NCBI GenBank assembly: GCA_048881705.1
Contig: JBHLSH010000022.1
Location: forward strand, 11,928-45,438
DNA length: 33,511 nt
Reading direction: 5' to 3'
From: Candidatus Heimdallarchaeota archaeon
GTDB lineage: Archaea; Asgardarchaeota; Heimdallarchaeia; Hodarchaeales; Hodarchaeaceae
Below the pieces are notes generated by a model. It was not told the DNA's origin and did not search any database. It saw only the letters and a program-made list of their open reading frames with translations. Each line of letters starts with the position of its first letter. The stretch's first letter is position 1. The translations under genes were made by a program, and so were the position numbers. This document shows positions 1 to 33,343 of this stretch, piece after piece.

Positions 1-179
1 GATTGGGAACCCTCGCATGTTACATAGAAATACGGGAGACAACCAGAGGAATTCTCTTTGTGTCAAATTACGTTGTTTTTCTGGATCAAGAGATTAAAAA
101 AAGCCAAATAACTTTCGTATTCAATCAAACGACCCCAGCAAATTGGGGGGCAGCTAGGGTTCACGAACCAGCATATTAA
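1..179 (+). CDS. 3' end of a gene truncated by the left window edge (hypothetical)
   Basis: The frame from nt 3 is open (LGTLACYIEIRETTRGILFVSNYVVFLDQEIKKSQITFVFNQTTPANWGAARVHEPAY*) to TAA at 177-179. It overlaps the convergent DegT stop in the shared TTAA (176-179). The other two + frames close early. Confidence 0.5.
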   Translation, partial: LGTLACYIEIRETTRGILFVSNYVVFLDQEIKKSQITFVFNQTTPANWGAARVHEPAY

Positions 180-1330
180 TGAAAAACATCCTCTAGAATC
201 CTTTTAATGACCCGAACTTCGGACTCGCTAACACCGGGATGAATAGGAATTTCGAAGTGGGTTTTTGCGACATAGTCGGTGTTGGGTAATTTTACCTGGG
301 AATAATTTGGATAAGATACAAACTGGCTCCACCTCCAATTTCTAATACCTTCTAAATAGGTAGGCTGCTGATGACATGGAATTTTGTAGATTTGTCGTGA
401 ACCGATTCCTTTGCCGTTCAGCATTTCCACAACTTGCGGCGCTGTCATATTACCTCCGCTGATTGTAGGTGCGCAAATGTAATCGCTATGAGTGAAACCA
501 GCAGGGATTTCTTGATTGTGAATGTTATCCAATTCTTCAATCACTTGTCTGACGTATTTTGCATTCCTATGCCTTTTTTCCAGCATTTCGGGAAGTTTTC
601 TAAGCTGGACCAGTCCGAGAGCGGCTAATGGATCTGCTAAACGGAAATTATACCCTATAACACTATGATAATACCCCCCTTTCTCACCTCTACCATGATT
701 TTTCAGACTTCTGATTCTTGCTGCCAGTTCATCGCTATCTGTTACAATCATCCCTCCTTCTCCGCTAGTTACATTTTTGGTAGCGTAAAATGAAAAACAC
801 CCAATATCCCCAAACGATCCCACATGCTTGGATTCTATATAAGCGCCGTGTGCCTGGCAGGCATCTTCTATAACAAACAAATCATGATCTTCTGCAATAT
901 CTAACAGTGCGGGCATGTTTGCAGGAAGGCCGAAAATATGTACTGGCAGAATTGCTTTCGTTTTAGATGTTATTAACTTCCCAACAGCTTCTGGGTCTAT
1001 ATTGTATGTTCCTCGTTCTATGTCAGCAAATATTGGAATATTGCCACAGAAACTGATTGCATTTGCGGAAGCTATGAATGTGAATGCTGGAGTTATAACT
1101 TCGGACCCTGGCCGAATTCCTAATCCTTCTAAAGCCAAATGGAGAGCAGCGGTACCGTTTACTGTTACAATGGCATGTTTCACCCCAGTAAACCTTGAAA
1201 ACTCTTCTTCAAGCGCACGGGCGTATTTCCCCTCAACAAATCCCTTTGATCGTATTGCCTGACCAACTAGTTCGATTTCATCTTCATCAATTTGAGGTTG
1301 CGCAAAATGCTTCACGATATTACTCTCCAA
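176..1330 (-). CDS. DegT/DnrJ/EryC1/StrS family PLP-dependent sugar aminotransferase
   Basis: Motifs NGTAALHLAL, TPAFTFIASANA, ILPVHIFG, IEDACQAHGA and FSFYATKNVTSGEGGM (Schiff-base Lys). TTG start, with an in-frame stop 30 nt upstream. Confidence 0.93.
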   Translation of the reverse strand: MESNIVKHFAQPQIDEDEIELVGQAIRSKGFVEGKYARALEEEFSRFTGVKHAIVTVNGTAALHLALEGLGIRPGSEVITPAFTFIASANAISFCGNIPIFADIERGTYNIDPEAVGKLITSKTKAILPVHIFGLPANMPALLDIAEDHDLFVIEDACQAHGAYIESKHVGSFGDIGCFSFYATKNVTSGEGGMIVTDSDELAARIRSLKNHGRGEKGGYYHSVIGYNFRLADPLAALGLVQLRKLPEMLEKRHRNAKYVRQVIEELDNIHNQEIPAGFTHSDYICAPTISGGNMTAPQVVEMLNGKGIGSRQIYKIPCHQQPTYLEGIRNWRWSQFVSYPNYSQVKLPNTDYVAKTHFEIPIHPGVSESEVRVIKRILEDVFH

Positions 1331-12247: not shown

Positions 12248-14989
12248 TTGGACGTATTTCATGTGTCTACTATAAAGAACCTTAGGCGGCATATCATTAT
12301 TGTGATTATTTTGTTCATGCCAATTACCAATTTAAGCCTACAACTGATTTGGTCAGAGGATATTTCACAGAAAGGTCAAAAACTTCAAAATTCGAGAATA
12401 CAGATCACAGAGGAATTTTTTCCACCAAAAAGCCCACGGTCTCTAACTTCAGATCTTCTTCCGGAATCATTGTGGCATCTTAACCATCCTACGGATATTG
12501 AGGACGAATTCAGAAGAATTTATTCCCAGATTGATCCTGAAACGGCTGATCAAGAAGGTCTGAAAGGCAAAAACGTCACAATTGCTGTTTTGGACACTGG
12601 TGTAAATCTTAACCCGTGGATCACTTCTGAACAATTGGTAGGAAATTATACGACCGTTTTTAATTCAACTTCAACGTCGGATGAACGTGGACACGGGACG
12701 ATGGTGGCTTCTATAATATCCAAGATCGCACCAGAAGCTCACATAATCAGTATACGAATTTCGAACGAATTAGGAGAAATAGAACCTACATGGTTTCGCA
12801 AAGGATTGGAATTAGCCCAGAGCCTAAATGTATCCATAATTCATGCCTCTGTTGGAACCGATGACTTAGACTCATTGAATTCGTCTTTTTTCTCTGAATT
12901 AGATGATCTAAATGTCACTACTGTCTTTGCAGCGGGCAATTTTGGTAGTAGTGGTCTGAGTTTGACAGCTCCAGCTGTATATGATGAACCAATCGCAGTA
13001 GGCATGGCCTATAATCGTTCAATTGTACCTCCCGTTAGTTCGGTAGGTCCGAGACCATCTGGACTTCTAGGGCCAGACATTGTTGCGCCAGGTGTTAATA
13101 TTTCAACATATGATCACAAAGGAACTCCCGTCCGTGGCTCAGGTACGTCATTTGCTGCTCCATTCGTTACTGGAGCAGTTGCTCTCCTTCGAGGTATTGA
13201 TGCATTCCCCAAAGCCCCACCTAGCCTCATTAAAGCCGCCTTAATGGAGACAGCAATGATTTTGAATGATACTCCACCAATTTTGCAAGGAAACGGTTTT
13301 CTGAATATTTCTGGAGCCTATCACAGGTTAAAAAACCTATCTCTGTCCCCATTGTTCTCATTCTCCCCCAAAACAATATCATCGAGTTTTCCATATTTCG
13401 GCCATGGAATAAACGGTATTTCGCAGAAATATCGGATTAGTTTATACAGCTCACCAAGAAATATCACTCTAAAATCAATAAATTCCTCCTTTATAAACCC
13501 CATAGAAGTATCCATTGGTCTGTTACCCCTTTCTATTTCTAGGGGAGTCAATTTCCTGAATTTGTCTCTATTCATTCCTAGGGATGCTACTATGGGCCTT
13601 TACAAGGGGCCCATAATCTTTAGTTTTGCCAATGAAAGCATGGTATGGAATATCAATATGACGGTAATGATAAGAAATCATTACCAAGGAGGAAAGATTC
13701 TGTTCTATCAAGGCTATGATAATGACACCTTTAGGTCATCAGGACCTGCAGGAACATATAGTCAATTACAGCTGTTCTTATCCGAATATTACGGAATGTC
13801 GGTAACTGGATTAATTCCTCCTGAAATATCCTTATACCTGGGAGGATCCCTTGTTGGAACTCCTGAGCGAAAACTGACTTCCGAAGATCTAGAGGGTTTT
13901 AATATCCTTGTTTTGGCTGATATTGAATGGGGAATTTCAGATGATGAGATCGCCCTTATTCAAGATTGGGTGGCCGATGGCCATTCTTTGTTTGTTCTAT
14001 CATATCCGTCATGGACAAACAACAAAGGATCGGAAAAATTCTCAAACCAAACGGCAATAAACCGACTTCTTGAACCCTACGGAATAATGATAGAGGATGA
14101 TCCTTCACTTACAGAGACGCAGAATCCTTTGTTTCCTCGGTTTAACGAGGCCAAATTAACCCCCACAAATCCATTAACGGCAGACGATCAGGTGAAAGAA
14201 GTCGTATTCAGCTATAATGGAACGTCCTTATCATTGAATCAAACTAGGGGGGCAGAAATCCTAGCAACGGCCCCTGATCTTACAAATAATTCTTTTGAGG
14301 TTCCTGTCGGGGCCTATTGGCAAGATAATACTTCTATTGGGAAGGTGATAGTTTTTGGGAGTGAACTTCCATTTAGAGATGGTAGTTACTCCCTAAGCAG
14401 TGCGGCATCGAATATAGTAATCGCTATTCGAACATTCCGATGGTTGATTGAAGATCAACAAATCCCAATTGAATTAATTCTCACCTCTAATCCAGTTGTA
14501 GGGGCTGCAACCACCATTCAAATCCAGATAGAGGATCCAGGTTTTTTGGTCTCTCAATTTAACGGAACGATTGTTGAATCCAATGGTTCCTTTAGTCAAA
14601 TAGTATTTTCAAAATCGATCAATGTATATGTTGGTTCATGGATACCCAAGGCACAAGGGTTTGCATTTCTTTGGCTAAATTTGGATTCCTCGGACGATAT
14701 TCAAACTGGTGGTCCTTTTATCATCGAAGTGATGGATCCTGCATCATCAAACCTCCTTTTCTTTATGATTTTTGGAGGCATTGCTTTACTGGGCCTTTCT
14801 TTCTATCTCTATTCATCCCGGCAGACGCCTCAAGGCTCCCCCCTCGATAGAAGACTTATGATTCTTCAAAAGCAAAAAAAGGGGACCAAAAAGGTCAGTC
14901 TAGAAACCGCTTCGATTTGTACAAAATGTCGTACCCCACGCTACAAAGATAATTCCAAATACTGTTGGAAATGCGGGAAGGAACTGTAG
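12248..14989 (+). CDS. Membrane-anchored S8 serine protease with GATase-like ectodomain, C-terminal TM and cytosolic zinc ribbon (site-1-protease-like)
   Basis: N-terminal hydrophobic signal. Triad IAVLDTG / GHGTMVAS / GTSFAAP with oxyanion AAGN. GATase-like segment (KILFYQGYDND...EIALIQDWVADGHSLFVL...GKVIVFGS). TM LLFFMIFGGIALLGLSFYLY, then CTKC...CWKCG. More than 20 N-x-S/T sequons. Alternative start GTG at 12263. Confidence 0.88.
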   Translation: MDVFHVSTIKNLRRHIIIVIILFMPITNLSLQLIWSEDISQKGQKLQNSRIQITEEFFPPKSPRSLTSDLLPESLWHLNHPTDIEDEFRRIYSQIDPETADQEGLKGKNVTIAVLDTGVNLNPWITSEQLVGNYTTVFNSTSTSDERGHGTMVASIISKIAPEAHIISIRISNELGEIEPTWFRKGLELAQSLNVSIIHASVGTDDLDSLNSSFFSELDDLNVTTVFAAGNFGSSGLSLTAPAVYDEPIAVGMAYNRSIVPPVSSVGPRPSGLLGPDIVAPGVNISTYDHKGTPVRGSGTSFAAPFVTGAVALLRGIDAFPKAPPSLIKAALMETAMILNDTPPILQGNGFLNISGAYHRLKNLSLSPLFSFSPKTISSSFPYFGHGINGISQKYRISLYSSPRNITLKSINSSFINPIEVSIGLLPLSISRGVNFLNLSLFIPRDATMGLYKGPIIFSFANESMVWNINMTVMIRNHYQGGKILFYQGYDNDTFRSSGPAGTYSQLQLFLSEYYGMSVTGLIPPEISLYLGGSLVGTPERKLTSEDLEGFNILVLADIEWGISDDEIALIQDWVADGHSLFVLSYPSWTNNKGSEKFSNQTAINRLLEPYGIMIEDDPSLTETQNPLFPRFNEAKLTPTNPLTADDQVKEVVFSYNGTSLSLNQTRGAEILATAPDLTNNSFEVPVGAYWQDNTSIGKVIVFGSELPFRDGSYSLSSAASNIVIAIRTFRWLIEDQQIPIELILTSNPVVGAATTIQIQIEDPGFLVSQFNGTIVESNGSFSQIVFSKSINVYVGSWIPKAQGFAFLWLNLDSSDDIQTGGPFIIEVMDPASSNLLFFMIFGGIALLGLSFYLYSSRQTPQGSPLDRRLMILQKQKKGTKKVSLETASICTKCRTPRYKDNSKYCWKCGKEL

Positions 14990-23643: not shown

Positions 23644-23745
23644 GGTAGGGGTATGTTTTCTCGTTATCTCATTTGGCGTCTTATCTACTCGGTGTTGAAG
23701 ACGATATTGCTGAAGAAACGCTTAGAAGACGTCGGTCACGATGCT

Positions 23746-23763
23746 AAGTTTAAAACTTTTAAG
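23746..23763. promoter_or_regulatory. AT-rich quasi-palindromic TATA region between divergent genes
   Basis: AAGTTTAAAACTTTTTAA lies about 35-50 nt upstream of ATG 23797, which supports that start over 23653. Confidence 0.4.
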
Positions 23764-23796
23764 AACATCCCCACCACTTCCATTTGGAACCTAAAG

Positions 23797-25614
23797 ATGG
23801 ACCAACAAACTTTGCTGGTTCAAATCAACCAAGCTAAACAAGATCTCTACCAGACCAAATATGATAATGCAATTAAGGGGTTTATAAGGGCGATCGAGAT
23901 TTCTAGAAAAATCTCGCCCAATTTATCCGGGATTATTGGGATTTGCCATGCTTATTTGGCTGTAGCTTATGGTAAGATAGGAGAACGACAAGAATCACTT
24001 GAGAATATAACCTTGGCTGAAGCGGCTTTCTCGAATGAAACCAAGAATCCATCAGATTACGCTAAGATTATTCGAACTATTGGTAAGGAACTCCAAGATA
24101 TGATGTATTTTGATAGTTCTATCATAGGCCTTCGATTAGCCTTAAAACTTGCTCGCAATTATGAGGGAGAAGGAAAATTAGATTTAGTTTCCATTATATC
24201 GCGAGATCTTGGATTCTCTTATATGAAGGTGGGAAATCATCTTTCTGCCGCCAAATTATTCCGTATCTCAGGAGATTTGGAAGACGATGATTTTGATGCT
24301 GTCAACCTTTACCAAAATGCGGCCTACCTTTATTACCAAGAAAATAAACGAAATAAGGCGCTTAATACATTAGAAACGGCTTTTAACAAGGCAGGAATAA
24401 TAGGGAAACTCGAAATTCAGCAGGAAATTGCTCAGTTCCAATCAAGTATAGCCTATGATTTGTTTAGGGAGTCTCAGGAAAAGGAATCATTCGAAACAGC
24501 GATGGCTTATTGCGAGCTATGTCTAGAAAAACTTGAATTTCTCGGTAAAATGGAGTGGATTGTGAGAATAAGGTATGAACAAGCATTAACATATTCGCAA
24601 TTAGGCCAACGCCATCAGAGTCTTCAATTACTAAGCGAGCTTGCACTAAAGCCTCCAACCGTGGAAACTGAAGAGTATATCATAAAGGCCAATATTTTAA
24701 TGACCATTTACTCATTGGAATCTGACAAATACGGAGAAGCTACGTTTTATATCCGACAGATTTCTGAATCTCAATTTAAAAAGCTTGAGGAGACCAGACC
24801 CGAATTAACACAGAAGCTCGAGGCAATTCGCGCCTATTTAAAACGACTCGAGCGAAGAGGGCAAATCTCCACTAATATCAGATTCTCGCGAAAAAAGCTA
24901 GATCTTCCTCTAGAAGACTTGTTAAATGAGCTAGAACCAGTTCCCGAAGATCAACAGGTTTCTCCTGATTTGAAACTTTTACAGGCCCCCATCCTGGAAG
25001 TAACGCCTCCTGTAGCGAAACCGTCGCACACATATCAATCCCCAACAATCGAGACACTACAGGAATTATTTAAATCCACTGAAATCTCACAGAATGGAGC
25101 AGTTCATCCTGTCACTCCTACTATTTCCCCCAAAACGCCCCCCGTTGAAACACCCGCTTATATTGATCGTACTCGCCTGTTTAAAGCTCATCAAACCAAA
25201 GGTTCCCCAAAATCAATTGAACAGAAACGATTGACTTCGATCACGAGACAAGAACAAGCAATGCCTGAATATTCCCCAACAATAGATATGGATTCAACAA
25301 GCCAGACGCTGGATAAACGAACAGAGGTTATTACAAGACTTCAGCGCGCAGGATGGTCGATTCGTGTAAACTTTACTGATAGTTCCAGACGGACCGCTGA
25401 ACCTGACCTGATCGCTGAAAAAGGATTGATACGAAAAACACGACGTTTGGTTTTTTTTGCCGAGGATCCAACTGATGCAGAAATCTGTTCTTTCCTACTT
25501 CAATCTAGTCAAGATAGTGGTCAAAAGATAATATTCCTTCTAACTGGTGATCCCTTGGAGGCAAATATCTCTTTGGATGTCAAGATTTTCACACAGATAG
25601 ACCAGTTCTTCTGA
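23797..25614 (+). CDS. TPR/SNAP-like helical repeat protein with Pro/Thr-rich linker and C-terminal PD-(D/E)XK-fold domain
   Basis: Helical repeats (AAKLFRISGD, AVNLYQNAAYLYY), linker EVTPPVAKP...PVTPTISPKTPPVETP, and C-terminus LQRAGW...EPDLIAEKG...LVFFA. Confidence 0.7.
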   Translation: MDQQTLLVQINQAKQDLYQTKYDNAIKGFIRAIEISRKISPNLSGIIGICHAYLAVAYGKIGERQESLENITLAEAAFSNETKNPSDYAKIIRTIGKELQDMMYFDSSIIGLRLALKLARNYEGEGKLDLVSIISRDLGFSYMKVGNHLSAAKLFRISGDLEDDDFDAVNLYQNAAYLYYQENKRNKALNTLETAFNKAGIIGKLEIQQEIAQFQSSIAYDLFRESQEKESFETAMAYCELCLEKLEFLGKMEWIVRIRYEQALTYSQLGQRHQSLQLLSELALKPPTVETEEYIIKANILMTIYSLESDKYGEATFYIRQISESQFKKLEETRPELTQKLEAIRAYLKRLERRGQISTNIRFSRKKLDLPLEDLLNELEPVPEDQQVSPDLKLLQAPILEVTPPVAKPSHTYQSPTIETLQELFKSTEISQNGAVHPVTPTISPKTPPVETPAYIDRTRLFKAHQTKGSPKSIEQKRLTSITRQEQAMPEYSPTIDMDSTSQTLDKRTEVITRLQRAGWSIRVNFTDSSRRTAEPDLIAEKGLIRKTRRLVFFAEDPTDAEICSFLLQSSQDSGQKIIFLLTGDPLEANISLDVKIFTQIDQFF

Positions 25615-25689
25615 TAAGTTACTGAGAACCGAAAATCAACTCTGATGATCTATGAAATCTTTTCGTTATCTTGGGGTGATCGGGAGTTA

Positions 25690-26346
25690 TCATTTTTCTT
25701 TTTCAAACCGTGAGCTAATGATTCTATCCAATTCGTTTTGAATTTCTTCAATTGTACGATCGCCAGCTATGGGTTTTAAGACACCCAAACCCTTGTAATA
25801 TTCAATTAATGGTTTTGTCTGCCTTAGATATGTCTGTAATCTCTTTATAACGGTCTCCTCTCGATCATCAGTTCTTTGGTATAACTCGCCAGAACAGATG
25901 TCACAGATCCCTTGGATCTTTGGTGGGTTGAAGTTAATATGAAAAATGGCCCCACATTTCTTGCAGGTTCGTCTACCAGTTATCCGTTTAACAAGCGTTT
26001 TTTGCTCTGCCTCAATGAGGATGACAAGATCTACTTCCGCGATTTTTTCAAGATCTTTAGCCTGCTGCAAATTCCGCGGATAACCATCTAAAATGAAACC
26101 TGGCCTGGAGTCATCTTGAGAGATCCGAATTTTTAGTAGCTTCAGCACCACTGGATCAGGGACAAGGTTCCCAGCATCAATATATTCTTGTGCTAGTTGT
26201 CCCAATTCACTCCCGCTCTTAACAGCTGCTCTGAGAAGGTCTCCTGTACTAATCTGGGGCAGGCCAAACTTCTTTGCAATAAATTTTGCTTGGGTTCCTT
26301 TTCCTGAACCTGGAGGGCCTAGCATAACTAAAATGAATTTATCCAT
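25690..26346 (-). CDS. adk: Adenylate kinase, bacterial/eukaryote type with Zn-binding LID
   Basis: P-loop GPPGSGKGTQA, ISTGDLLR, GNLVPD, GFILDGYPR, LID CKKC...CDIC and RTDDREETV. Confidence 0.97.
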   Translation of the reverse strand: MDKFILVMLGPPGSGKGTQAKFIAKKFGLPQISTGDLLRAAVKSGSELGQLAQEYIDAGNLVPDPVVLKLLKIRISQDDSRPGFILDGYPRNLQQAKDLEKIAEVDLVILIEAEQKTLVKRITGRRTCKKCGAIFHINFNPPKIQGICDICSGELYQRTDDREETVIKRLQTYLRQTKPLIEYYKGLGVLKPIAGDRTIEEIQNELDRIISSRFEKEK

Positions 26347-26385
26347 AGTGATTTTCCATCCATCCTGGGTAGGATCCCCGGTGCC

Positions 26386-27129
26386 TTAATCCGGTTTTCC
26401 AGACTCGATTTTGGCATTGTTCAGCTTGAGGAGAATGTCTCGCGCTTTACTGGCATGTTCTTCACTTATAACGAAAGTTACAACAAGTTGATTTAATTGA
26501 TGTACTGTGTGTATTCGATAGAGGGAAATGGCCTGGTCAGCTAATAGAGATGATACATGGGCAAGTATTCCTGGGATTTTTTCTGCTTCCTGAGGTAGCA
26601 TTAAGCGGAGGTGACTCAGAGAATCCTGAAGTTTGATGTGTTCAACTACGTTTAATTCTGAGATTTGAGAGAGAAATGCTTCTTCCGCCATTTTTTTTGT
26701 ATATAGCTCTACGCCATTCCGATTGGGAAATGAGACATTACTAATAGATTCCTGATCTAGTTGATCCAAAATGAAGCTCAACGCGGAAATAATATCCGTA
26801 TCTTTTCGAAAGTTCAGTTTATAATGGATTTGGCCGTCTACGACTTCTGTTGTCCCTTTCCTAAGAATGTGATGCACTCTTTTTACTCCCAACAGTTCCT
26901 CTTGCCGTTGGCGAAGCTTTTTAAGATATCTTGTTATCGCGACGGCAATATTACCCTTCAGTTTGTCTTGATCTTTTTCAAGAAAGAGGCCTCTATCAAG
27001 AAGCTCGTGCATTATTCTTTCTGCAATCTCTTTTTGAGCGGTTTTTCTTTGTTGTAACGTATGAATCAAAGAGGGGTCTTGATCAAGAATTTCTCGAACA
27101 ATTTTTGATACTGGTTTTCCAGAAATCAT
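26386..27129 (-). CDS. Archaeal ACT-domain-containing protein with N-terminal helical (HTH-like) region
   Basis: The N-terminus VSKIVREILDQDP...EIAERI...IAVAITRYL matches the pattern of archaeal ACT-domain regulators. C-terminal ACT: IPGILAHVSSLLADQAISL...LVVTFVISEE. ATG 27129 is preferred over 27234. Confidence 0.72.
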   Translation of the reverse strand: MISGKPVSKIVREILDQDPSLIHTLQQRKTAQKEIAERIMHELLDRGLFLEKDQDKLKGNIAVAITRYLKKLRQRQEELLGVKRVHHILRKGTTEVVDGQIHYKLNFRKDTDIISALSFILDQLDQESISNVSFPNRNGVELYTKKMAEEAFLSQISELNVVEHIKLQDSLSHLRLMLPQEAEKIPGILAHVSSLLADQAISLYRIHTVHQLNQLVVTFVISEEHASKARDILLKLNNAKIESGKPD

Positions 27130-27308
27130 CAATAGCCTTCCAAACTGGAGATAATTCCAAATAATGTCGCCATTGGTGGAATTTATATAATTTCGTACTT
27201 TTATGTAATCACGGAATAAATTAAAAATAAGCAAATATATGTCGAAATCGGTATATATTAACCCCGAAGTTCAATTGATAGAAGGGAATTGAGCAAAGGT
27301 TTTTCCTC

Positions 27309-28079
27309 TTGCCTGGAACTGCAATGAATTTTTCAAACACATTTATACTAATCCCGGCATTTAATGAGGAAAAAAATCTGTTTCGACTTATCGATCAGCT
27401 AAAACGAGCTGGATTCAATACCTCGCACCTGGTTTTAGCAGATGATGGATCTACGGATCAAACGAGTCAGATAGGGAGGGATCTTGGAATTCGAATAATT
27501 AGATCCCCCACTAACTACGGAAAAGGGTATATTCTGTATCATGCATTCAATACGATATTGAATAGGTTCCCCTCGATTGAAAGTATCATGACGATTGATG
27601 GAGATGGCCAACATGATCACAGGGAAATCCCAGAGTTTCTAAAAGCCCTCGATAAGGACGATTCGCTTGGCATCGTTATTGGACGGCGTGACTTCAATAT
27701 AATGCCACGGATAAATAAAATTTCAAACAGCTTGACCTCGATGTGGTGTTTGTACTGGTTACAATGGGACATTCCCGATGTACAATGTGGATTTCGTGCA
27801 TATCGATCCTCCATTTTGCGACGGATCTTGGATTACGGAATATCCACCAGGAAATTTGATTTTGAAACAGAATTGCTTTTTATAACCTGGTTGTTGGGCT
27901 TCGATATTTCCTCAATTCCAATTCGTACGGTCTATATCCAAAATAACAGGAAATCATATGTAGTTCCGATTACAGATACTCTCAGATGGACCAGACTGGC
28001 CTTCCGTTTTGGTTTTAATCCTCAATTCATGAGAAGGATTTGGAAACAACGATTGATTTCAAAAGAAAGGAAGAGATAA
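27309..28079 (+). CDS. GT2 glycosyltransferase, polyprenol-phosphate glycosyltransferase (DPM1-like)
   Basis: LIPAFNEE, DDGSTDQT, NYGKG, IDGDGQHD, DVQCGFRAY and FDFETELL. ATG 27324 is an alternative start. Confidence 0.88.
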   Translation: MPGTAMNFSNTFILIPAFNEEKNLFRLIDQLKRAGFNTSHLVLADDGSTDQTSQIGRDLGIRIIRSPTNYGKGYILYHAFNTILNRFPSIESIMTIDGDGQHDHREIPEFLKALDKDDSLGIVIGRRDFNIMPRINKISNSLTSMWCLYWLQWDIPDVQCGFRAYRSSILRRILDYGISTRKFDFETELLFITWLLGFDISSIPIRTVYIQNNRKSYVVPITDTLRWTRLAFRFGFNPQFMRRIWKQRLISKERKR

Positions 28080-28217
28080 GAATCCTTGCTGATTTCGAAA
28101 ATGAAAAAAATACTCCTACGAGAAAATGCGATCTGAAGAGAAACACTCTTGTAAAAAATTTCAAAGGATGGATAATTGATTCAGGACTCTTATATTGCTG
28201 GAAGTGGCGTTCTACTT

Positions 28218-28760
28218 ATGAAGCAGAAGCTTGTGCTTAAATTAGTTCTTTTAGGAGACCCTGGGGTTGGAAAAACATCGTTGATTTCTCAATTTGTACA
28301 TGCGAGATTCAGAAATAGTTACCAGCTGACAGTAGGCCTTGATATTTCCTCCAAACAGGTAAAACTAGATGATGGTAGAGTCGTAACACTCAGCATCAAT
28401 GATATCGGCGGTCAAGCTAGGTTTGCCGCTATTCGTCATATGTTCTTTAAGGGGTCTCACCTAGCCATGCTGGTATATGATGTCACCAGGGAAGACACGT
28501 TACAGAATATAATTGAACCCTGGTTTACCGAATTACAGGAATTCTGCAATCAACCTGATGTATCAAAGGTACAGACGATTCTTGTCGGAAACAAGGCCGA
28601 TCTTGAAGACTATAGAATGATCGAAGAAGAAGAGGGAAATGTTATAGCAAAAAAAATCAATGCTATTGGTCATATTATCGCCAGCGCTAAGGAAAATCAG
28701 AATGTGGATGTCGCGTTTAAAACCCTGGCTGAAGCATACTTTAGAGAAACAAAACGGTAG
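28218..28760 (+). CDS. Rab-like small GTPase (Ras superfamily)
   Basis: G1 GDPGVGKT, G2 YQLTVG, G3 DIGGQ, RFAAIRHMFFKGS, LVYDVT, G4 GNKAD and G5 ASAK. No C-terminal Cys. ATG 28218. Confidence 0.93.
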   Translation: MKQKLVLKLVLLGDPGVGKTSLISQFVHARFRNSYQLTVGLDISSKQVKLDDGRVVTLSINDIGGQARFAAIRHMFFKGSHLAMLVYDVTREDTLQNIIEPWFTELQEFCNQPDVSKVQTILVGNKADLEDYRMIEEEEGNVIAKKINAIGHIIASAKENQNVDVAFKTLAEAYFRETKR

Positions 28761-28803
28761 CAAGACCATCTTGCCTTTTCCCTATCTAAATTCATGACAA
28801 GGA

Positions 28804-29694
28804 GTGATTGGTGTGGGCATTAACGCGGATTATTCATTTTTGGAGTATTTTCCCACGCAGTTATTTTCTGCACTAATCGAGGAATGGACAGGCCAGGACA
28901 AAAAGATTGATTTTACACCAAATGGTCTATTGTCACCAGATAACCGTGAAACCACTATAAGACTTGCTCAGAGTATCTCTTCAAACCGTCTTAAAGAATT
29001 ACAAAGACTTTCGAGATTTCTCGATTTTTCAGATATATGGTGGCTCGTATATCACATTCCGAGAACAAAACAGGTTTCAAATCTTCTAGAACTCGACACC
29101 TCAAGTTTCGATGTAGACAAATATTCTCCACAAGACGGCCCCAAGATAAATGGGAGAATAATTGTACATGAACTTTCGGAACATGCCGTATTCGTCGCAT
29201 TAGAGTTTCAATCGCGATCAAAATTTCTACGTCGTGCATTCAGACACCTATATCTCCCCTTTGCTAAAATTATTCTCGTAGAACCGCAGGATCAAGCGAT
29301 TGAGGTCTTGGAAAATGAACTCCTCCCATTTATAACTCAGGAACCAAACAAGCTTGCCCCCAGAAAGGCAAATGCTCGGTTTATCAAGAAACTGGCTAAA
29401 CCACAAAAAGGTGACGGTTTCTCTCTTGTATTAACGCATCTCAAAATCAAAATCACGCTAGAAACCAGCGGTATTGAAGGATTAACCCAGATAATAATCC
29501 AGGGCTCAGATGTAATTAGGGGAGCAGAAACTTTGGAACAACGACATGAGATCTCATTGAAATTCATGAATTCGGGCCCGTGGGTAGGAGTCGGAACAGA
29601 GGACTTTATTATTGAAGTTGGAAAAGGAGTCAAGATTCGACGTCTCGAAAGATCATCTCTGAAAAGCTTATCAGCAGTTCTTTCCGATATTTGA
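28804..29694 (+). CDS. Hypothetical alpha/beta protein (296 aa)
   Basis: Clean ORF between the GTPase and the protease. GTG 28813 has a GGAGTGA SD-like element upstream. No established motif. Confidence 0.72.
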   Translation: MIGVGINADYSFLEYFPTQLFSALIEEWTGQDKKIDFTPNGLLSPDNRETTIRLAQSISSNRLKELQRLSRFLDFSDIWWLVYHIPRTKQVSNLLELDTSSFDVDKYSPQDGPKINGRIIVHELSEHAVFVALEFQSRSKFLRRAFRHLYLPFAKIILVEPQDQAIEVLENELLPFITQEPNKLAPRKANARFIKKLAKPQKGDGFSLVLTHLKIKITLETSGIEGLTQIIIQGSDVIRGAETLEQRHEISLKFMNSGPWVGVGTEDFIIEVGKGVKIRRLERSSLKSLSAVLSDI

Positions 29695-29719
29695 GCTCCT
29701 GCTGTGGAGCAAGATACAC

Positions 29720-32194
29720 ATGAAGATAAAACCCTCTGGCTTGCTTCTAATACTAGTATTTGCTTTTTTTGTTCCAGTCATGCATTTTACTAACCCAGAA
29801 TCCCAACCGATTGTTTCAAAGTCGTCTGGAACTTTTAAATCGACAATCCCAACCAATAACGTTTTTGGGTACGAATATCTCGGATTCCTTGTGCAATTTA
29901 AGGAAAAGATACCTCCCTTGGAGGAATTTCAAAATTTCATTAAACACAAGTACTCCTTTTTGCCAGTTATCTTGATCGAATTCCCTAGCAAATCTATGAC
30001 TGATCGATTTCTTTCTTCCTGTGAGGAAAAAATTGTATCTGTCCTGCCCAATAGGGCATACCGGGCAGAACCTTCTTTATATCAGTCTAGATTTAGGGAT
30101 TATTTACCAAAATTAAAACAACAAAAGATAGTAAGCACGATACGTGATTCCACGGGAACAACATATCTTCATCAAATGAATCTTACAGGAAAGGGTGTTA
30201 GGATAGGTATAATCGATACTGGTGTCAATTCGATAGGAGAAATTGGATCTCGTGTTATAGATAGGGAGGTTTTCGTATCCAAGCAGTTTGGATATTCAAA
30301 CGATATTTCAGATTCTAGCGATGTGTGGGGGCACGGAACCAACGTAGCAACCTTCGCAGCAGGAGATTCATCTGGAATTGCTCCAGATGCAGAAATCTTG
30401 AGTGCAAAGGTAATTCACAATGCGGGGACTTTGGGGGCTGGAGGAGGTGGAGGAGAGGAAACTACAGCTGGAATGCTCGCCGCGATCGAATGGCTCGTTA
30501 ATCAATCTGCGGATATTATCAACATTTCTCTCGGCCAATACCATAATCTTCCAACTGGATTAAGGGATAGAGTGATTAACCAAATATCTATAGACCATAA
30601 CATCGTTTTTACAATATCGGCTGGCAATTCTGGTACTGGATTCGGAGATCGGGGAACACTAAATAATCCATCCACAGCTCTTCAAGCTATTGCTGTTACA
30701 GCAAGTGATATCGACGGTACGTTTGTTGCGAGTTTTGCTTCAAAGGGCCCTAAAGTAGATTATTCAATGAAACCAGATATTGCCGCGCCAGGTGTAAACC
30801 TGCCAGATCAGGGTACTTCATTCGCAGCTCCAATTGTTGCGGGTTCAGCAGCTTTATTGATAGAAGGTCTAAGAAATTTGAGTTTATCTTACTCAGCTTC
30901 TACCATAAAAGCCGCCCTTCTTGATGGAGCTCGTTCCATGGGATTTCCATCTTGGAAGGAGGGCGCTGGCTTTCTCAATGTTACAAACGCGTGGGAAAAA
31001 CTGAGATCTGCTCCCATTGAAAATAATAGGCCCGATCTGGTTTATTTACACCCAAAACAGTTACCGTTTGATCCTTACGAAGTCTTGTTCAAAGGTAGTT
31101 CCATTACTCTTAATCTTACAGTAATATCTGGGTTAGAGAAGAAAATTCAGGATGCAGTTTTATCGCCCAGTCTAGCTCCGTATATAAGCCTACCGGAAGC
31201 TCCGGTCGACATCAATAATTCCTTCCTACTACCTATCAATTTTACAATCCCGCTTGGTGCTGAAGAACAATTGGTACAGGGGAATCTGACAATCGGGACA
31301 GAAAGAATACCTGTTATCTTTGAAATAAGATCCCCTCAGGCCCGGATTCTATTTGATGAAAGCCTAAACAGCATCGTTCAACATGGGATTGGAACCACAG
31401 CTGAAGAAGTTAAAGGAGATACATCAAGTACTATCGGAATGTTCGCCGAGTTTACCAGATTTCTCGCCTATGATAACAATTATAGTGTCATACCGCATAT
31501 CAAAGGTGATTTAACGCTAAGCAAATTATCCAAGTTCGATGTTCTTATCCTTCCTGCACCGTTCTCCCTCGCTAGTGATATCTATATGGATTGGGTGAAT
31601 AATCCAGGAAATTCTTACCTTGTAACTTCGCAAGAAACCATCGATGCAGTCCATCAGTTTGTTTCAGAGGGGGGTGGACTTTTGGTTTTAAGTACAGATC
31701 AGGAAAACTATAATCTGACGGCCCTGAATGATTTCTTAACCCCATTTAACATTCAGATTCAATCGAGTTCAAGTGGGATTGTGGCTGATGCCATTATTAT
31801 AGATAATTCATTCAATTTCACCCAGAATGTCGATTCTTACCCGCATTGGGGGAACTATCTTTTAAAAATAGGAAATTCATCCAATGAAAGAGTATTAGCT
31901 ACTTCAAACGGGGAGCCAACACTTATTGCACATCTAAATCCCTCAGGGGGAAGAGTGGTCGTTTTTGGGTCTGATCTATTATTCGATAATATCGGGTTTT
32001 CTTTGGCGGCGTACGGTAACCAAGAAAGCAACAGGATATTTGCCTTCAATACCGTAGCATGGTTAAGTCAAAAAAGTTTAAGACCAACAACAACCGATTT
32101 GCCGGAGTTTCCCTTGCCCTTAGTGATATTTTTACTTTTTTCAGCTATCGCCATATGCTATATTATTTATACAAAGAAAATCAATACATCGTGA
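29720..32194 (+). CDS. Membrane-anchored S8 serine protease with I9-like propeptide, GATase-like ectodomain and C-terminal TM (site-1-protease-like)
   Basis: Signal peptide, then propeptide (LVQFKE...VSVLPNR). Triad IGIIDTG / WGHGTNVA / GTSFAAP, with SAGN...GTLNNP. ILFDESLN...GGGLLVL...ALNDFLTPF...GGRVVVFGSD. TM LPLVIFLLFSAIAICYIIY followed by KK. Confidence 0.9.
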   Translation: MKIKPSGLLLILVFAFFVPVMHFTNPESQPIVSKSSGTFKSTIPTNNVFGYEYLGFLVQFKEKIPPLEEFQNFIKHKYSFLPVILIEFPSKSMTDRFLSSCEEKIVSVLPNRAYRAEPSLYQSRFRDYLPKLKQQKIVSTIRDSTGTTYLHQMNLTGKGVRIGIIDTGVNSIGEIGSRVIDREVFVSKQFGYSNDISDSSDVWGHGTNVATFAAGDSSGIAPDAEILSAKVIHNAGTLGAGGGGGEETTAGMLAAIEWLVNQSADIINISLGQYHNLPTGLRDRVINQISIDHNIVFTISAGNSGTGFGDRGTLNNPSTALQAIAVTASDIDGTFVASFASKGPKVDYSMKPDIAAPGVNLPDQGTSFAAPIVAGSAALLIEGLRNLSLSYSASTIKAALLDGARSMGFPSWKEGAGFLNVTNAWEKLRSAPIENNRPDLVYLHPKQLPFDPYEVLFKGSSITLNLTVISGLEKKIQDAVLSPSLAPYISLPEAPVDINNSFLLPINFTIPLGAEEQLVQGNLTIGTERIPVIFEIRSPQARILFDESLNSIVQHGIGTTAEEVKGDTSSTIGMFAEFTRFLAYDNNYSVIPHIKGDLTLSKLSKFDVLILPAPFSLASDIYMDWVNNPGNSYLVTSQETIDAVHQFVSEGGGLLVLSTDQENYNLTALNDFLTPFNIQIQSSSSGIVADAIIIDNSFNFTQNVDSYPHWGNYLLKIGNSSNERVLATSNGEPTLIAHLNPSGGRVVVFGSDLLFDNIGFSLAAYGNQESNRIFAFNTVAWLSQKSLRPTTTDLPEFPLPLVIFLLFSAIAICYIIYTKKINTS

Positions 32195-32251
32195 AAATGA
32201 ATTTTAATTTACGGACCGCCATTTCCTTTCGTTCGGTGACTTACAGTTAGA

Positions 32252-33343
32252 ATGAGAGCCTCCGAAATGTCCGAGACACAATCCGATCGCCTCCGTACAG
32301 TTCTAATGCGTATCATTGAAGGATTTTCTGACTATTTCGTTTCAAGAGTTGCAGCTACCTATAATGATACGCCTTCTAAAGTCAATGTTCGAAACATATC
32401 CGCTGAAAGAAAATTGGGTACCACTGGAATCCATATCGTAAAAGTCAACCTTGACTCTGATCTGGGGGAAGACGAAGCAAGCATAGCAGTCAAAATCTAC
32501 GACCAAAAAGAGCAAGCTGCGGAAGTTGTAAAACGGATTAACTCCCTTCAGAAGCGCATCACACCGTATCATAGTTTGGGTGTTTCTTCTGCGGCAGTTA
32601 TCTTCTTTTCGGGAAGCGTGGTCATTATGGAAGGTATTCCAGGTGATGTATTTCGTGATTCGAAAATTCCTAGACCACAAAAGTATAGATACGCAGGAAA
32701 GGCACTAGCCGTGTTTCATGGAACCAAAAGGGAAAAAGTGTGGTTTGATAAGTATAAATTGCTGTTAAATCGTAGTTTACAGAGTTTACCAAATGAAATT
32801 CCAAATTCTGGTAAAATTTCCTTGAGAGACCGATTCAATGAAGTTTTACCTGTTGTTGAACGAGTTTCTGCGAACTCTGGGGCGGTTACATTTGGTGACT
32901 TTCACCCTGGAAATGTGATATTTGATGTCAAGTTGGGTAGATCACCAATGATTCATACACATTTAATTGATCCAGAGTTCCTAGATATGACGAGTACTGA
33001 TCATGATCGGCTCGAAGACATCTGTAACTTTTTTGCTGTAGAAACGGTGGATGTCTACAGACAAGATCCGGAACTAAGAACGCTTCGCTTAAACTTGAAG
33101 TCATTTTTATCTGGATACAAAGAGTTTTTGGCATTAAGGCAATCTTCCCTATCAGAGATGTATCCGAATGATAAGAATTACATTCCCATTAACTTTCATT
33201 TAGCATTGATGGTCTTGATGTCCATACTCAACATTCAAGGGATGGCTGATTTATTTGGGGGTGAGCAGGGACTCTTAAAGGAAATATCATTACGGCAGGA
33301 GCTAATTGAGAAGCTTTTGAAGTGGGAATCTTTCCCCGATTGA
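32252..33343 (+). CDS. Protein-kinase-like phosphotransferase (APH/choline kinase/MtnK-like)
   Basis: IAVKIYD (beta3 Lys), VIMEGIPG hinge, catalytic loop FGDFHPGNV and metal-binding LIDPEF. Confidence 0.8.
   Translation: MRASEMSETQSDRLRTVLMRIIEGFSDYFVSRVAATYNDTPSKVNVRNISAERKLGTTGIHIVKVNLDSDLGEDEASIAVKIYDQKEQAAEVVKRINSLQKRITPYHSLGVSSAAVIFFSGSVVIMEGIPGDVFRDSKIPRPQKYRYAGKALAVFHGTKREKVWFDKYKLLLNRSLQSLPNEIPNSGKISLRDRFNEVLPVVERVSANSGAVTFGDFHPGNVIFDVKLGRSPMIHTHLIDPEFLDMTSTDHDRLEDICNFFAVETVDVYRQDPELRTLRLNLKSFLSGYKEFLALRQSSLSEMYPNDKNYIPINFHLALMVLMSILNIQGMADLFGGEQGLLKEISLRQELIEKLLKWESFPD

Follow-up and report, generated by a model that had tools for sequence, protein, structure and literature searches.

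Site-1 protease (S1P, also known as MBTPS1 or SKI-1) initiates the SREBP, ATF6 and CREB3 pathways and the targeting of lysosomal enzymes, and to our knowledge it has been treated so far as a eukaryotic enzyme. A stretch of 33,511 nucleotides from a Candidatus Heimdallarchaeota archaeon (assembly GCA_048881705.1, contig JBHLSH010000022.1; hereafter the window) contains a subtilase gene, P0001, which an earlier note, made from the DNA letters alone, had likened to S1P over its whole domain order. The question raised by this locus is whether an Asgard archaeon possesses an enzyme of the S1P type and, if so, in what sense. Based on the results described below, we suggest that P0001 is probably a type-I membrane-anchored S8 endoprotease with a prodomain and with an ectodomain built and packed like that of S1P, belonging to the "EETT-loop" clade of an Asgard superfamily and encoded after a GTPase and a protein of no known family, p290. 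Our literature search found no paper tying S1P/MBTPS1 to Asgard archaea. In the 2024 cryo-EM paper on S1P (PMC11231238), both the sandwich and the GIFT subdomain are described, the GIFT subdomain being called poorly characterised; a prokaryotic counterpart is not mentioned there.

Gene, topology and active site

The open reading frame of P0001 and the position of its GTLNNP motif are as the earlier note had given them (Table 1). About 85 full-length relatives were found, sharing 46–82% identity with P0001 and coming from MAG records named Hodarchaeales or Heimdallarchaeota. Hydropathy and the AF2 model indicate a type-I topology, namely a signal peptide, a prodomain, a single C-terminal TM helix and a short basic tail of seven residues; the helix and the basic tail had already been noticed from the sequence. 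In the AF2 model, residues 5–20 are helical and are followed by a disordered stretch, and the prodomain forms a beta-alpha-beta-beta-alpha-beta unit at residues 51–114 with pLDDT of 84–91. The linker behind the prodomain is not conserved in the relatives, and an RxxL-type autoprocessing site common to them was not found there. The ectodomain includes 13 N-glycosylation sequons and only two cysteines.

The catalytic domain matched PF00082 with an E-value of 1.4e-40 and 139.9 bits (cut-off 21.8). The Asp-His-Asn(oxyanion)-Ser tetrad is intact and stands in the subtilase order; in the alignment D166, H205, N303 and S367 are paired with D218, H249, N338 and S414 of S1P (numbering of PMC11231238). 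Between the His and the oxyanion Asn lies a Gly-rich loop, in which E246, E247 and T248 are invariant in the alignment of relatives (A1). S1P is gapped at this place in the phmmer alignment, and the EETT string is a marker of a 39-row clade in the tree. The strict LNNP string was almost confined, among 265 proteins, to this clade and its near neighbours.

Table 1. Positions in the window of the protease gene, its parts, the genes ahead of it and its paralogue
Feature	Position	Strand	Basis or remark
Paralogue, 913 aa: S8, beta-sandwich, GIFT, TM, zinc-ribbon tail	12248..14989	+	26% identity to P0001 over 135–789, E 5e-24
Ras/Rab-like small GTPase, first of three-gene run	28176..28760	+	Pfam Ras, 1e-44
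p290, 296 aa, no known family, second of run	28804..29694	+	Ends 26 bp ahead of protease gene
P0001, membrane-anchored subtilase, 824 aa, whole gene	29720..32194	+	ORF list and translation; coordinates include stop codon
Signal peptide, N-terminal, hydrophobic (about residues 1–23)	29720..29788	+	Hydropathy >1.6 in windows 1–8
I9-like prodomain (about residues 48–118), then linker 118–135	29861..30073	+	AF2, Atlas alignment
Peptidase S8 catalytic domain (residues 136–431)	30125..31012	+	Pfam PF00082
Catalytic D166	30215-30217	+	Invariant in 25 relatives
Catalytic H205	30332-30334	+	Invariant in 25 relatives
Gly-rich loop GAGGGGGEETTAG, clade-specific	30425..30472	+	Alignment, tree
Oxyanion N303	30626-30628	+	Invariant in 25 relatives
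GTLNNP motif (residues 312–317), after oxyanion Asn; also in S1P	30653..30670	+	Alignment to S1P
Catalytic S367	30818-30820	+	Invariant in 25 relatives
P-like beta-sandwich (residues 432–540)	31013..31339	+	AF2 strands 441–537
GIFT (GATase1-like) domain (residues 541–785)	31340..32074	+	Fold and family sequence signatures both present
C-terminal TM helix (797–817) and cytosolic tail TKKINTS (818–824)	32108..32191	+	Hydropathy peak windows 793–803; AF2 helix 799–823

Likeness to S1P in structure and in sequence

The structural comparison bore out the claim that the match extends across the whole domain order. The S8, sandwich and GIFT domains of P0001 fit S1P as one rigid body over 580 residues at 3.4 Å, and the sandwich falls on S1P 478–616 both in this whole-ectodomain superposition and in a module-only one of 311 residues. 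An Atlas alignment with the MBTPS1 model covers residues 21–817. A failure of the post-catalytic domains to superimpose on the S1P cryo-EM structures had been named in advance as a ground for rejecting the idea; they do superimpose. The Z-score of the GIFT domain was higher with IFT52 than with S1P.

In the phmmer search against the S1P chains of PDB entries 8uwc and 8uw8 (E-value of 4.6e-18), residues 147–489 of P0001 aligned with S1P 205–544, so that the alignment runs beyond S8 and continues without a break into the sandwich. The S1P strings that the earlier note had given for the catalytic half (LWQMGYTGANVRVAVFDTG, GNDGPLYGTLNNP, MKPDI, ASMKQALIASAR and NVTILNGMG) are present in it. S1P ranked second or third among the S8 structures for P0001, and in the search with the family profile both Tk-SP (3e-49) and Vpr (6.9e-49) scored above it (1.4e-46). 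The likeness to S1P that had been called "stronger" holds for the S8 half, for which S1P comes second in the PDB, but not as a sign of closer function.

The MBTPS1-specific Pfam models for the two post-catalytic domains of S1P are MBTPS1_3rd (PF23094) for the sandwich at 479–616 and MBTPS1_4th (PF23090) for the GIFT domain at 617–998. PF23094 gave no match in the genome at E ≤ 10 and none in 25 relatives at E ≤ 1, and PF23090 matched neither P0001 nor any other protein of its genome. The best score of PF23090 was 26.9 bits (cut-off 27), reached only in the distant relative P0089, and the GIFT-type models IFT52_GIFT, OST48_N and DUF7408 outscored it. A family profile of the sandwich and GIFT domains did match S1P 552–858 (E 2e-4), and it matched IFT52 at E 6.8e-12, aligning GGRV.VFGS and ALN.FL. 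Since these motifs also align in IFT52, and with a better score, they mark the GIFT fold in general and not S1P, for which they had been taken at first; as a single sequence, the C-terminal module had no S1P match in the PDB at E ≤ 10 and nothing meaningful besides. The sandwich-only profile found no S1P match in the PDB, and among the best 150 hits of an exhaustive sequence search none was S1P and none had its TLNNP motif. At the level of sequence, the tie of P0001 to S1P is modest.

The whole outer part of the protein matches S1P domain by domain, and this match hints at an archaeal origin of the S1P body plan. Common ancestry with S1P over the whole ectodomain is the most economical reading, though not a proven one.

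Asgard clades and the conserved gene run

The build of S8, sandwich and GIFT is widespread in Asgard archaea. The tree of the Asgard proteins placed P0001 in the EETT-loop clade of a superfamily with many clades, and an orthologue was present in 17 of the 21 genomes of its own genus that were searched. The Asgard genomes searched usually contained at least three matches to the family profile each, a count which includes other S8 proteins. The genome of P0001 has two full-build genes, both within the window, and two weaker module matches elsewhere.

The second of these genes, which had been pointed out at position 12248, is a real paralogue. It was annotated by Pfam as S8 plus IFT52_GIFT (9.8e-8) and belongs to a clade other than that of P0001, grouping with P0243 inside a clade of 1200–1330-aa proteins, several members of which are zinc-ribbon-tailed. 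The long clade has an Odinarchaeia-named relative, and extra C-terminal parts, including zinc ribbons, were seen in the three members scanned (P0002, P0089 and P0093). Further clades of the same build include one of 995–1005-aa proteins from records named Heimdallarchaeota and one of 657-aa proteins from records named Thorarchaeota. The modules of these other clades match the profile end to end (1e-30 to 1e-65), as in the build of P0001, but neither the EETT loop nor GTLNNP is present in these proteins. Other Asgard clades were also considered as bearers of a more S1P-like S8 domain; this was not so for P0157, for which S1P came 17th in the PDB. When carriers from beyond Asgard were looked for, one record named "Bathyarchaeia" (P0088) came up; its contig coordinates are the same as those of genome G289, which belongs to the class of our genome, and the protein closest to it bears the name Heimdallarchaeota, so that it gives no evidence for spread beyond Asgard.

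It is worth noting the two genes ahead of the protease gene, which are co-directed with it. The GTPase occupies the same position in loci L005, L006 and L011 and in all eight own-genus loci. For p290 no Pfam or PDB match was found, also with a five-sequence profile. It is single-copy in 48 of the 151 Asgard genomes searched, and its homologues lie beside three divergent protease clades, with identities of 32% (E 2e-40) and 29% (E 7e-21). The three-gene run is also seen with two other clades, with identities of 30–37%; among the full-build clades, the GTPase and p290 were observed as neighbours with the EETT-loop clade and not with the others. The fixed association of this clade with a Rab-like GTPase and a protein of no known family offers a concrete and testable handle on what both do. 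It is improbable, in our estimation, that eukaryotic S1P descends from the EETT-loop clade, found in Asgard archaea of the Hodarchaeales type, and that the archaeal protease forms a unit with the Rab-like GTPase and p290. If true, this would mean a primitive link of a membrane-traffic-type GTPase switch to proteolytic processing at the membrane, from which the S1P step of eukaryotes, gated by trafficking, would have been foreshadowed.

Possible function and comparison with known proteins

We propose the following mode of action for P0001. The protein would be exported and would remove its own prodomain. The catalytic domain, sandwich and GIFT domain would be held just above the membrane by the TM helix and the short basic tail, where the enzyme may cut exported or membrane proteins close to the outer membrane surface. 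As in S1P, the catalytic domain would be braced by the sandwich and the GIFT domain. The presence of several paralogues in one genome would be as compatible with bulk proteolysis outside the cell as with specific processing.

It is conceivable, although on balance unlikely, that P0001 is an ordinary cell-surface nutritional protease, anchored so that the released peptides are kept close to the cell, and that its S1P-like build was inherited without regulatory meaning. Tk-SP and Vpr, both degradative enzymes that act outside the cell, are among the best sequence matches of the family profile, and the many clades, the roughly three profile matches in most Asgard genomes searched (S8-only proteins included) and the two full-build genes and two weaker module matches of the own genome agree with such a role. 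The 13 sequons and two cysteines are likewise typical of archaeal surface proteins. However, an orthologue kept in most of the own-genus genomes searched, in a fixed run with a cytosolic GTPase pair, speaks against it, and the recurrence of this run beside two other clades is unusual for a scavenging enzyme.

We regard it as improbable that P0001 is a true S1P counterpart, by which membrane-tethered regulators are cut first on the extracytoplasmic side and then by S2P/M50 within the membrane, which would mean that regulated intramembrane proteolysis predates eukaryotes. As the first cut of such a pathway, P0001 is only a possible candidate. The whole-ectodomain match, an active site kept near the membrane by a short stalk and the tight linkage to a Rab-like GTPase gene, more in keeping with a regulated than with a bulk role, argue for it, as would the three M50 loci of the genome. 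These loci lie on contigs C9, C46 and C17 and none on the contig of the window. M50 was matched in each of the 14 control genomes and is therefore uninformative on a link to S2P; an M50 gene adjoining the protease gene was not found. S1P itself is characterised by autoprocessing and substrate cuts at R-x-hydrophobic-(L/K/F/T) and by sensitivity to PF-429242. For P0001, no substrate, tethered transcription factor or conserved RxxL site was found, and the same fold does not imply the same function. Moreover, bacteria use proteases unrelated to S1P, e.g., DegS and PrsW, for the site-1 cut.

Independent joining of S8, an Ig-like sandwich and GIFT in Asgard archaea and eukaryotes is less probable still: GIFT domains are mobile, occurring in IFT52, OST48 and bacterial GldG-type proteins (PMC11231238), that of P0001 is nearer to IFT52 and the MBTPS1-specific models fail, but three domains fit at once as one rigid body, the S8-to-sandwich alignment is continuous, the module profile reaches S1P and the signal, prodomain and TM-tail topology is shared as well.

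We retain the reading of P0001 as probably a membrane-anchored endoprotease with an S1P-like ectodomain. The Asgard-wide occurrence of the whole-ectodomain build would put S1P among the eukaryotic secretory-pathway components with archaeal forerunners. In addition, small archaeal models with only two cysteines could serve the study of subtilase control by the sandwich and the GIFT domain.

Among known proteins, S1P (PDB 8UW8, 8UWC, 9CSD; PMC11231238) has the same order of catalytic domain, P-like sandwich, GIFT and TM as P0001. P0001 is about 230 residues shorter and has a compact GIFT domain of about 245 aa, compared with about 380 in S1P. Its prodomain region is also the shorter one, with about 95 residues between the signal peptide and S8, whereas S1P has a two-part A/B prodomain; only five residues separate APGV from GTS in P0001, and many more do so in S1P. 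The clade-specific GGGGGEETT loop is absent from S1P, and P0001 in turn has none of the SPRING, SREBP or ATF6 context of S1P. The predicted location also differs, P0001 facing the cell exterior and S1P the Golgi lumen.

Tk-SP from Thermococcus kodakarensis (PDB 3AFG, 9UES) and Vpr (PDB 8JMW) have neither a GIFT domain nor a C-terminal TM anchor, and their post-catalytic parts are unlike those of P0001. The alignment with Tk-SP ends near model residue 467, and the fit of Vpr is loose (rmsd 5.6 Å). The GIFT domains of IFT52 (PDB 5FMR, 5FMS) and OST48 (8B6L chain N, 6S7O chain G) match P0001 only over residues 541–790 and are joined to neither a protease nor a sandwich; IFT52 is cytosolic.

Architecture of the P0001 protease and its relation to S1P

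P0001, a membrane-anchored subtilase, is encoded by an uninterrupted reading frame, for which the coordinates and motifs given in the earlier note were correct, with GTLNNP lying exactly at 30653-30670. Pfam placed Peptidase_S8 on residues 157-417 (1.4e-40) and matched residues 636-767 weakly to DUF4350 and DUF7408, two families of GIFT type. The catalytic residues Asp166, His205, Asn303 (oxyanion) and Ser367 were unchanged across 25 relatives. Hydropathy analysis revealed only two hydrophobic segments, one being the N-terminal signal and the other a helix at 797-817, which is directly followed by the tail TKKINTS. The ectodomain contains 13 N-x-S/T sequons, and the entire protein has only two cysteines.

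Features of the gene run (nucleotide positions in the window) and of the P0001 protein (residues)
Feature	Position	Strand	Remark
Ras/Rab-like GTPase	28176-28760	same as P0001	first in run
p290 protein, 296 aa	28804-29694	same as P0001	no Pfam or PDB match
P0001 protease, 824 aa	29720-32194	+	last in run
I9-like prodomain	residues 51-114		AlphaFold2 model
S8 domain	residues ~136-431		AlphaFold2 model
Beta-sandwich	residues ~441-537		AlphaFold2 model
Rossmann-like alpha/beta domain	residues 541-782		AlphaFold2 model
Terminal TM helix	C-terminus		AlphaFold2 model

The AlphaFold2 model was obtained from a 25-sequence alignment (pLDDT 81.8, pTM 0.81). Since the cryo-EM layout of S1P, the eukaryotic site-1 protease (MBTPS1/SKI-1), comprises S8 (187-478), a 'P-like' sandwich (479-616) and a GIFT subdomain (617-998) and ends in a TM helix with a short tail (PMC11231238), all three of its ectodomain parts are matched simultaneously by the predicted structure of P0001. 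Two further searches agree with this match. In the ESM Atlas fold search, a eukaryotic MBTPS1 cluster scored a TM of 0.70 over 685 residues (P0001 21-817), and the runner-up 0.49. By language-model features, the best matches were likewise eukaryotic MBTPS1 clusters (nine with that family set), at 0.94-0.95 with 181-187 of 256 features in common, against at most 0.87 for bacterial S8 clusters. The top cluster for the C-terminal module alone comprised the MBTPS1 3rd and 4th domains (0.86), which is a lead only.

At the sequence level, phmmer aligned P0001 147-489 with residues 205-544 of the PDB S1P chains (E 4.6e-18), extending past S8, and the S1P strings of the catalytic half that the earlier note had given were present in this alignment. 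S1P has been classed as pyrolysin-like (PMC6784293), and the family profile ranked the degradative subtilases Tk-SP (3e-49) and Vpr (6.9e-49) slightly above S1P (1.4e-46). The S1P-specific Pfam models MBTPS1_3rd and MBTPS1_4th found no match in P0001, its own genome or the 25 relatives; P0089, a distant relative, reached 26.9 bits with such a model (cut-off 27). S1P was not recovered by a profile of the family sandwich alone, and a search with the C-terminal module as a single sequence recovered nothing. The sandwich-plus-GIFT family profile matched S1P 552-858 at E 2e-4, and IFT52 better, at 6.8e-12. The C-terminal motifs GGRV.VFGS and ALN.FL, previously taken as marks of S1P, align equally with IFT52 and are thus GIFT signatures. 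Given these limits of the sequence evidence, the proposed relation to S1P depends mainly on the modelled structure of the whole ectodomain; it is further backed by the unbroken S8-to-sandwich alignment and a few common motifs (GTLNNP, MKPDI).

Distribution of the family and the paralogue P0002

A word-indexed search yielded about 85 full-length relatives of 46-82% identity, named as Hodarchaeales, Heimdallarchaeota or Kariarchaeaceae, with some labelled Thorarchaeota, and tiers further out at 31-38%. Exhaustive HMM searching with the profile of sandwich plus GIFT gave 3058 proteins at a threshold of E<=1e-3, of which 133 also passed E<=1e-30. Among the best 150 of the 3058, nearly all full-length proteins carried S8 and a hydrophobic segment at the C-terminus, with the module spanning about 430-870, and all named full-length ones were from Asgard archaea (Odinarchaeia, Thorarchaeota, Heimdallarchaeota). 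Matches at E<=1e-20, S8-only ones included, occurred in 280 of 301 Asgard genomes, and many families had matches spanning S8 through GIFT. Clear orthologues (>1000 bits) were confined to P0001's own genus (17 of 21 genomes, with the remaining four 71-86% complete); weaker ones (550-890 bits) were found within the same order.

A MAG labelled 'Candidatus Bathyarchaeia archaeon' (DATKZI010000052.1, L013) had matches at contig coordinates identical to those of G289, a genome of the same class as that of P0001. The nearest relative of its protease (58% identity) is in a MAG named Heimdallarchaeota, and the public label looks wrong.

In a FastTree phylogeny of 126 proteins with the S8-sandwich-GIFT build, P0001 belonged to a clade of 39 rows with an SH-like support of 100 (proteins of 750-930 aa), most members of which share a 'GGGGGEETT' loop (EETT clade). 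The paralogue P0002 (12248-14989, 26% identity to P0001) was placed in a separate 30-row clade with proteins of 1200-1330 aa, several of which have zinc-ribbon tails; that of P0002 is cytosolic. Its gene is flanked by HAD hydrolase and DHH-family genes, with no GTPase or p290 neighbours. The same genome contains two more weak sandwich-plus-GIFT matches, in a 1248-aa open frame (G000:C26:37252-37911, L009; E 1.6e-11) and a 427-aa frame (G000:C86:4071-4592, L010; E 3.6e-8, GIFT part only). Four giant cysteine-rich proteins of 3500-4000 aa (P0134, P0138, P0191, P0230), recovered by the exhaustive HMM search, have 2-8 stretches that match the profile in its GIFT region; they lack an aligned set of the subtilase D/H/S motifs.

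The GTPase-p290-protease gene run

The three genes are spaced by 43 and 25 bp. The run was found in 8/8 own-genus loci examined, beside P0001 orthologues of 52% and 47% identity, and beside P0069, a 35% identical protease whose 289-aa neighbour is 32% identical to p290 (E 2e-40). P0085 has a 233-aa p290 homologue alongside (E 7e-21), adjoining a Ras-like GTPase gene on the other strand. All three proteases of these run loci, including P0069 and P0085, belong to the EETT clade.

The p290 family is single-copy in 48 of the 151 Asgard genomes searched. Its gene directly follows that of a Ras/Rab-like GTPase in the own genus, in genome G025 and beside P0069, and in three more distant loci the GTPase gene adjoins on the opposite strand (loci compared: window 28176-29694; L005, L006, L011, L012, L015-L023). 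Outside the EETT clade p290 sometimes still adjoins a GTPase, but not a protease; therefore, p290 probably works as partner of a GTPase, a pair that the protease probably joined within the EETT clade. In five p290 sequences the conserved core was the C-terminal part (~165-290), with G223, G226, R239, G240 and G258-P259-W260 invariant.

The run also lies in a larger conserved gene-order block (window 23653-33343, L005 and L006; protein identity 47-52%), in the order TPR protein, adenylate kinase, unknown gene, GT2 glycosyltransferase, GTPase, p290, protease and APH-like kinase-fold protein. In the L005/L006 relatives the protease gene is followed by an inserted dCTP-deaminase gene, which the window lacks at this place.

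Possible function and comparison with S1P

The conserved gene run and the genus-wide orthologue point to a possible processing of specific targets by P0001, whereas the presence of several matches in a genome and the relatedness to degradative enzymes point to peptide scavenging instead. That P0001 acts upstream of S2P is no more than a possibility. Its genome has three M50 loci, all on contigs other than that of P0001; M50 was found in 14/14 control genomes, so its presence is uninformative. Our literature search found no paper linking S1P or MBTPS1 with Asgard archaea. On the best-supported reading, P0001 is a serine endoprotease that is exported, prodomain-activated and tethered to the membrane, where its targets are proteins at the outer face, and its ectodomain is homologous in build to that of S1P.
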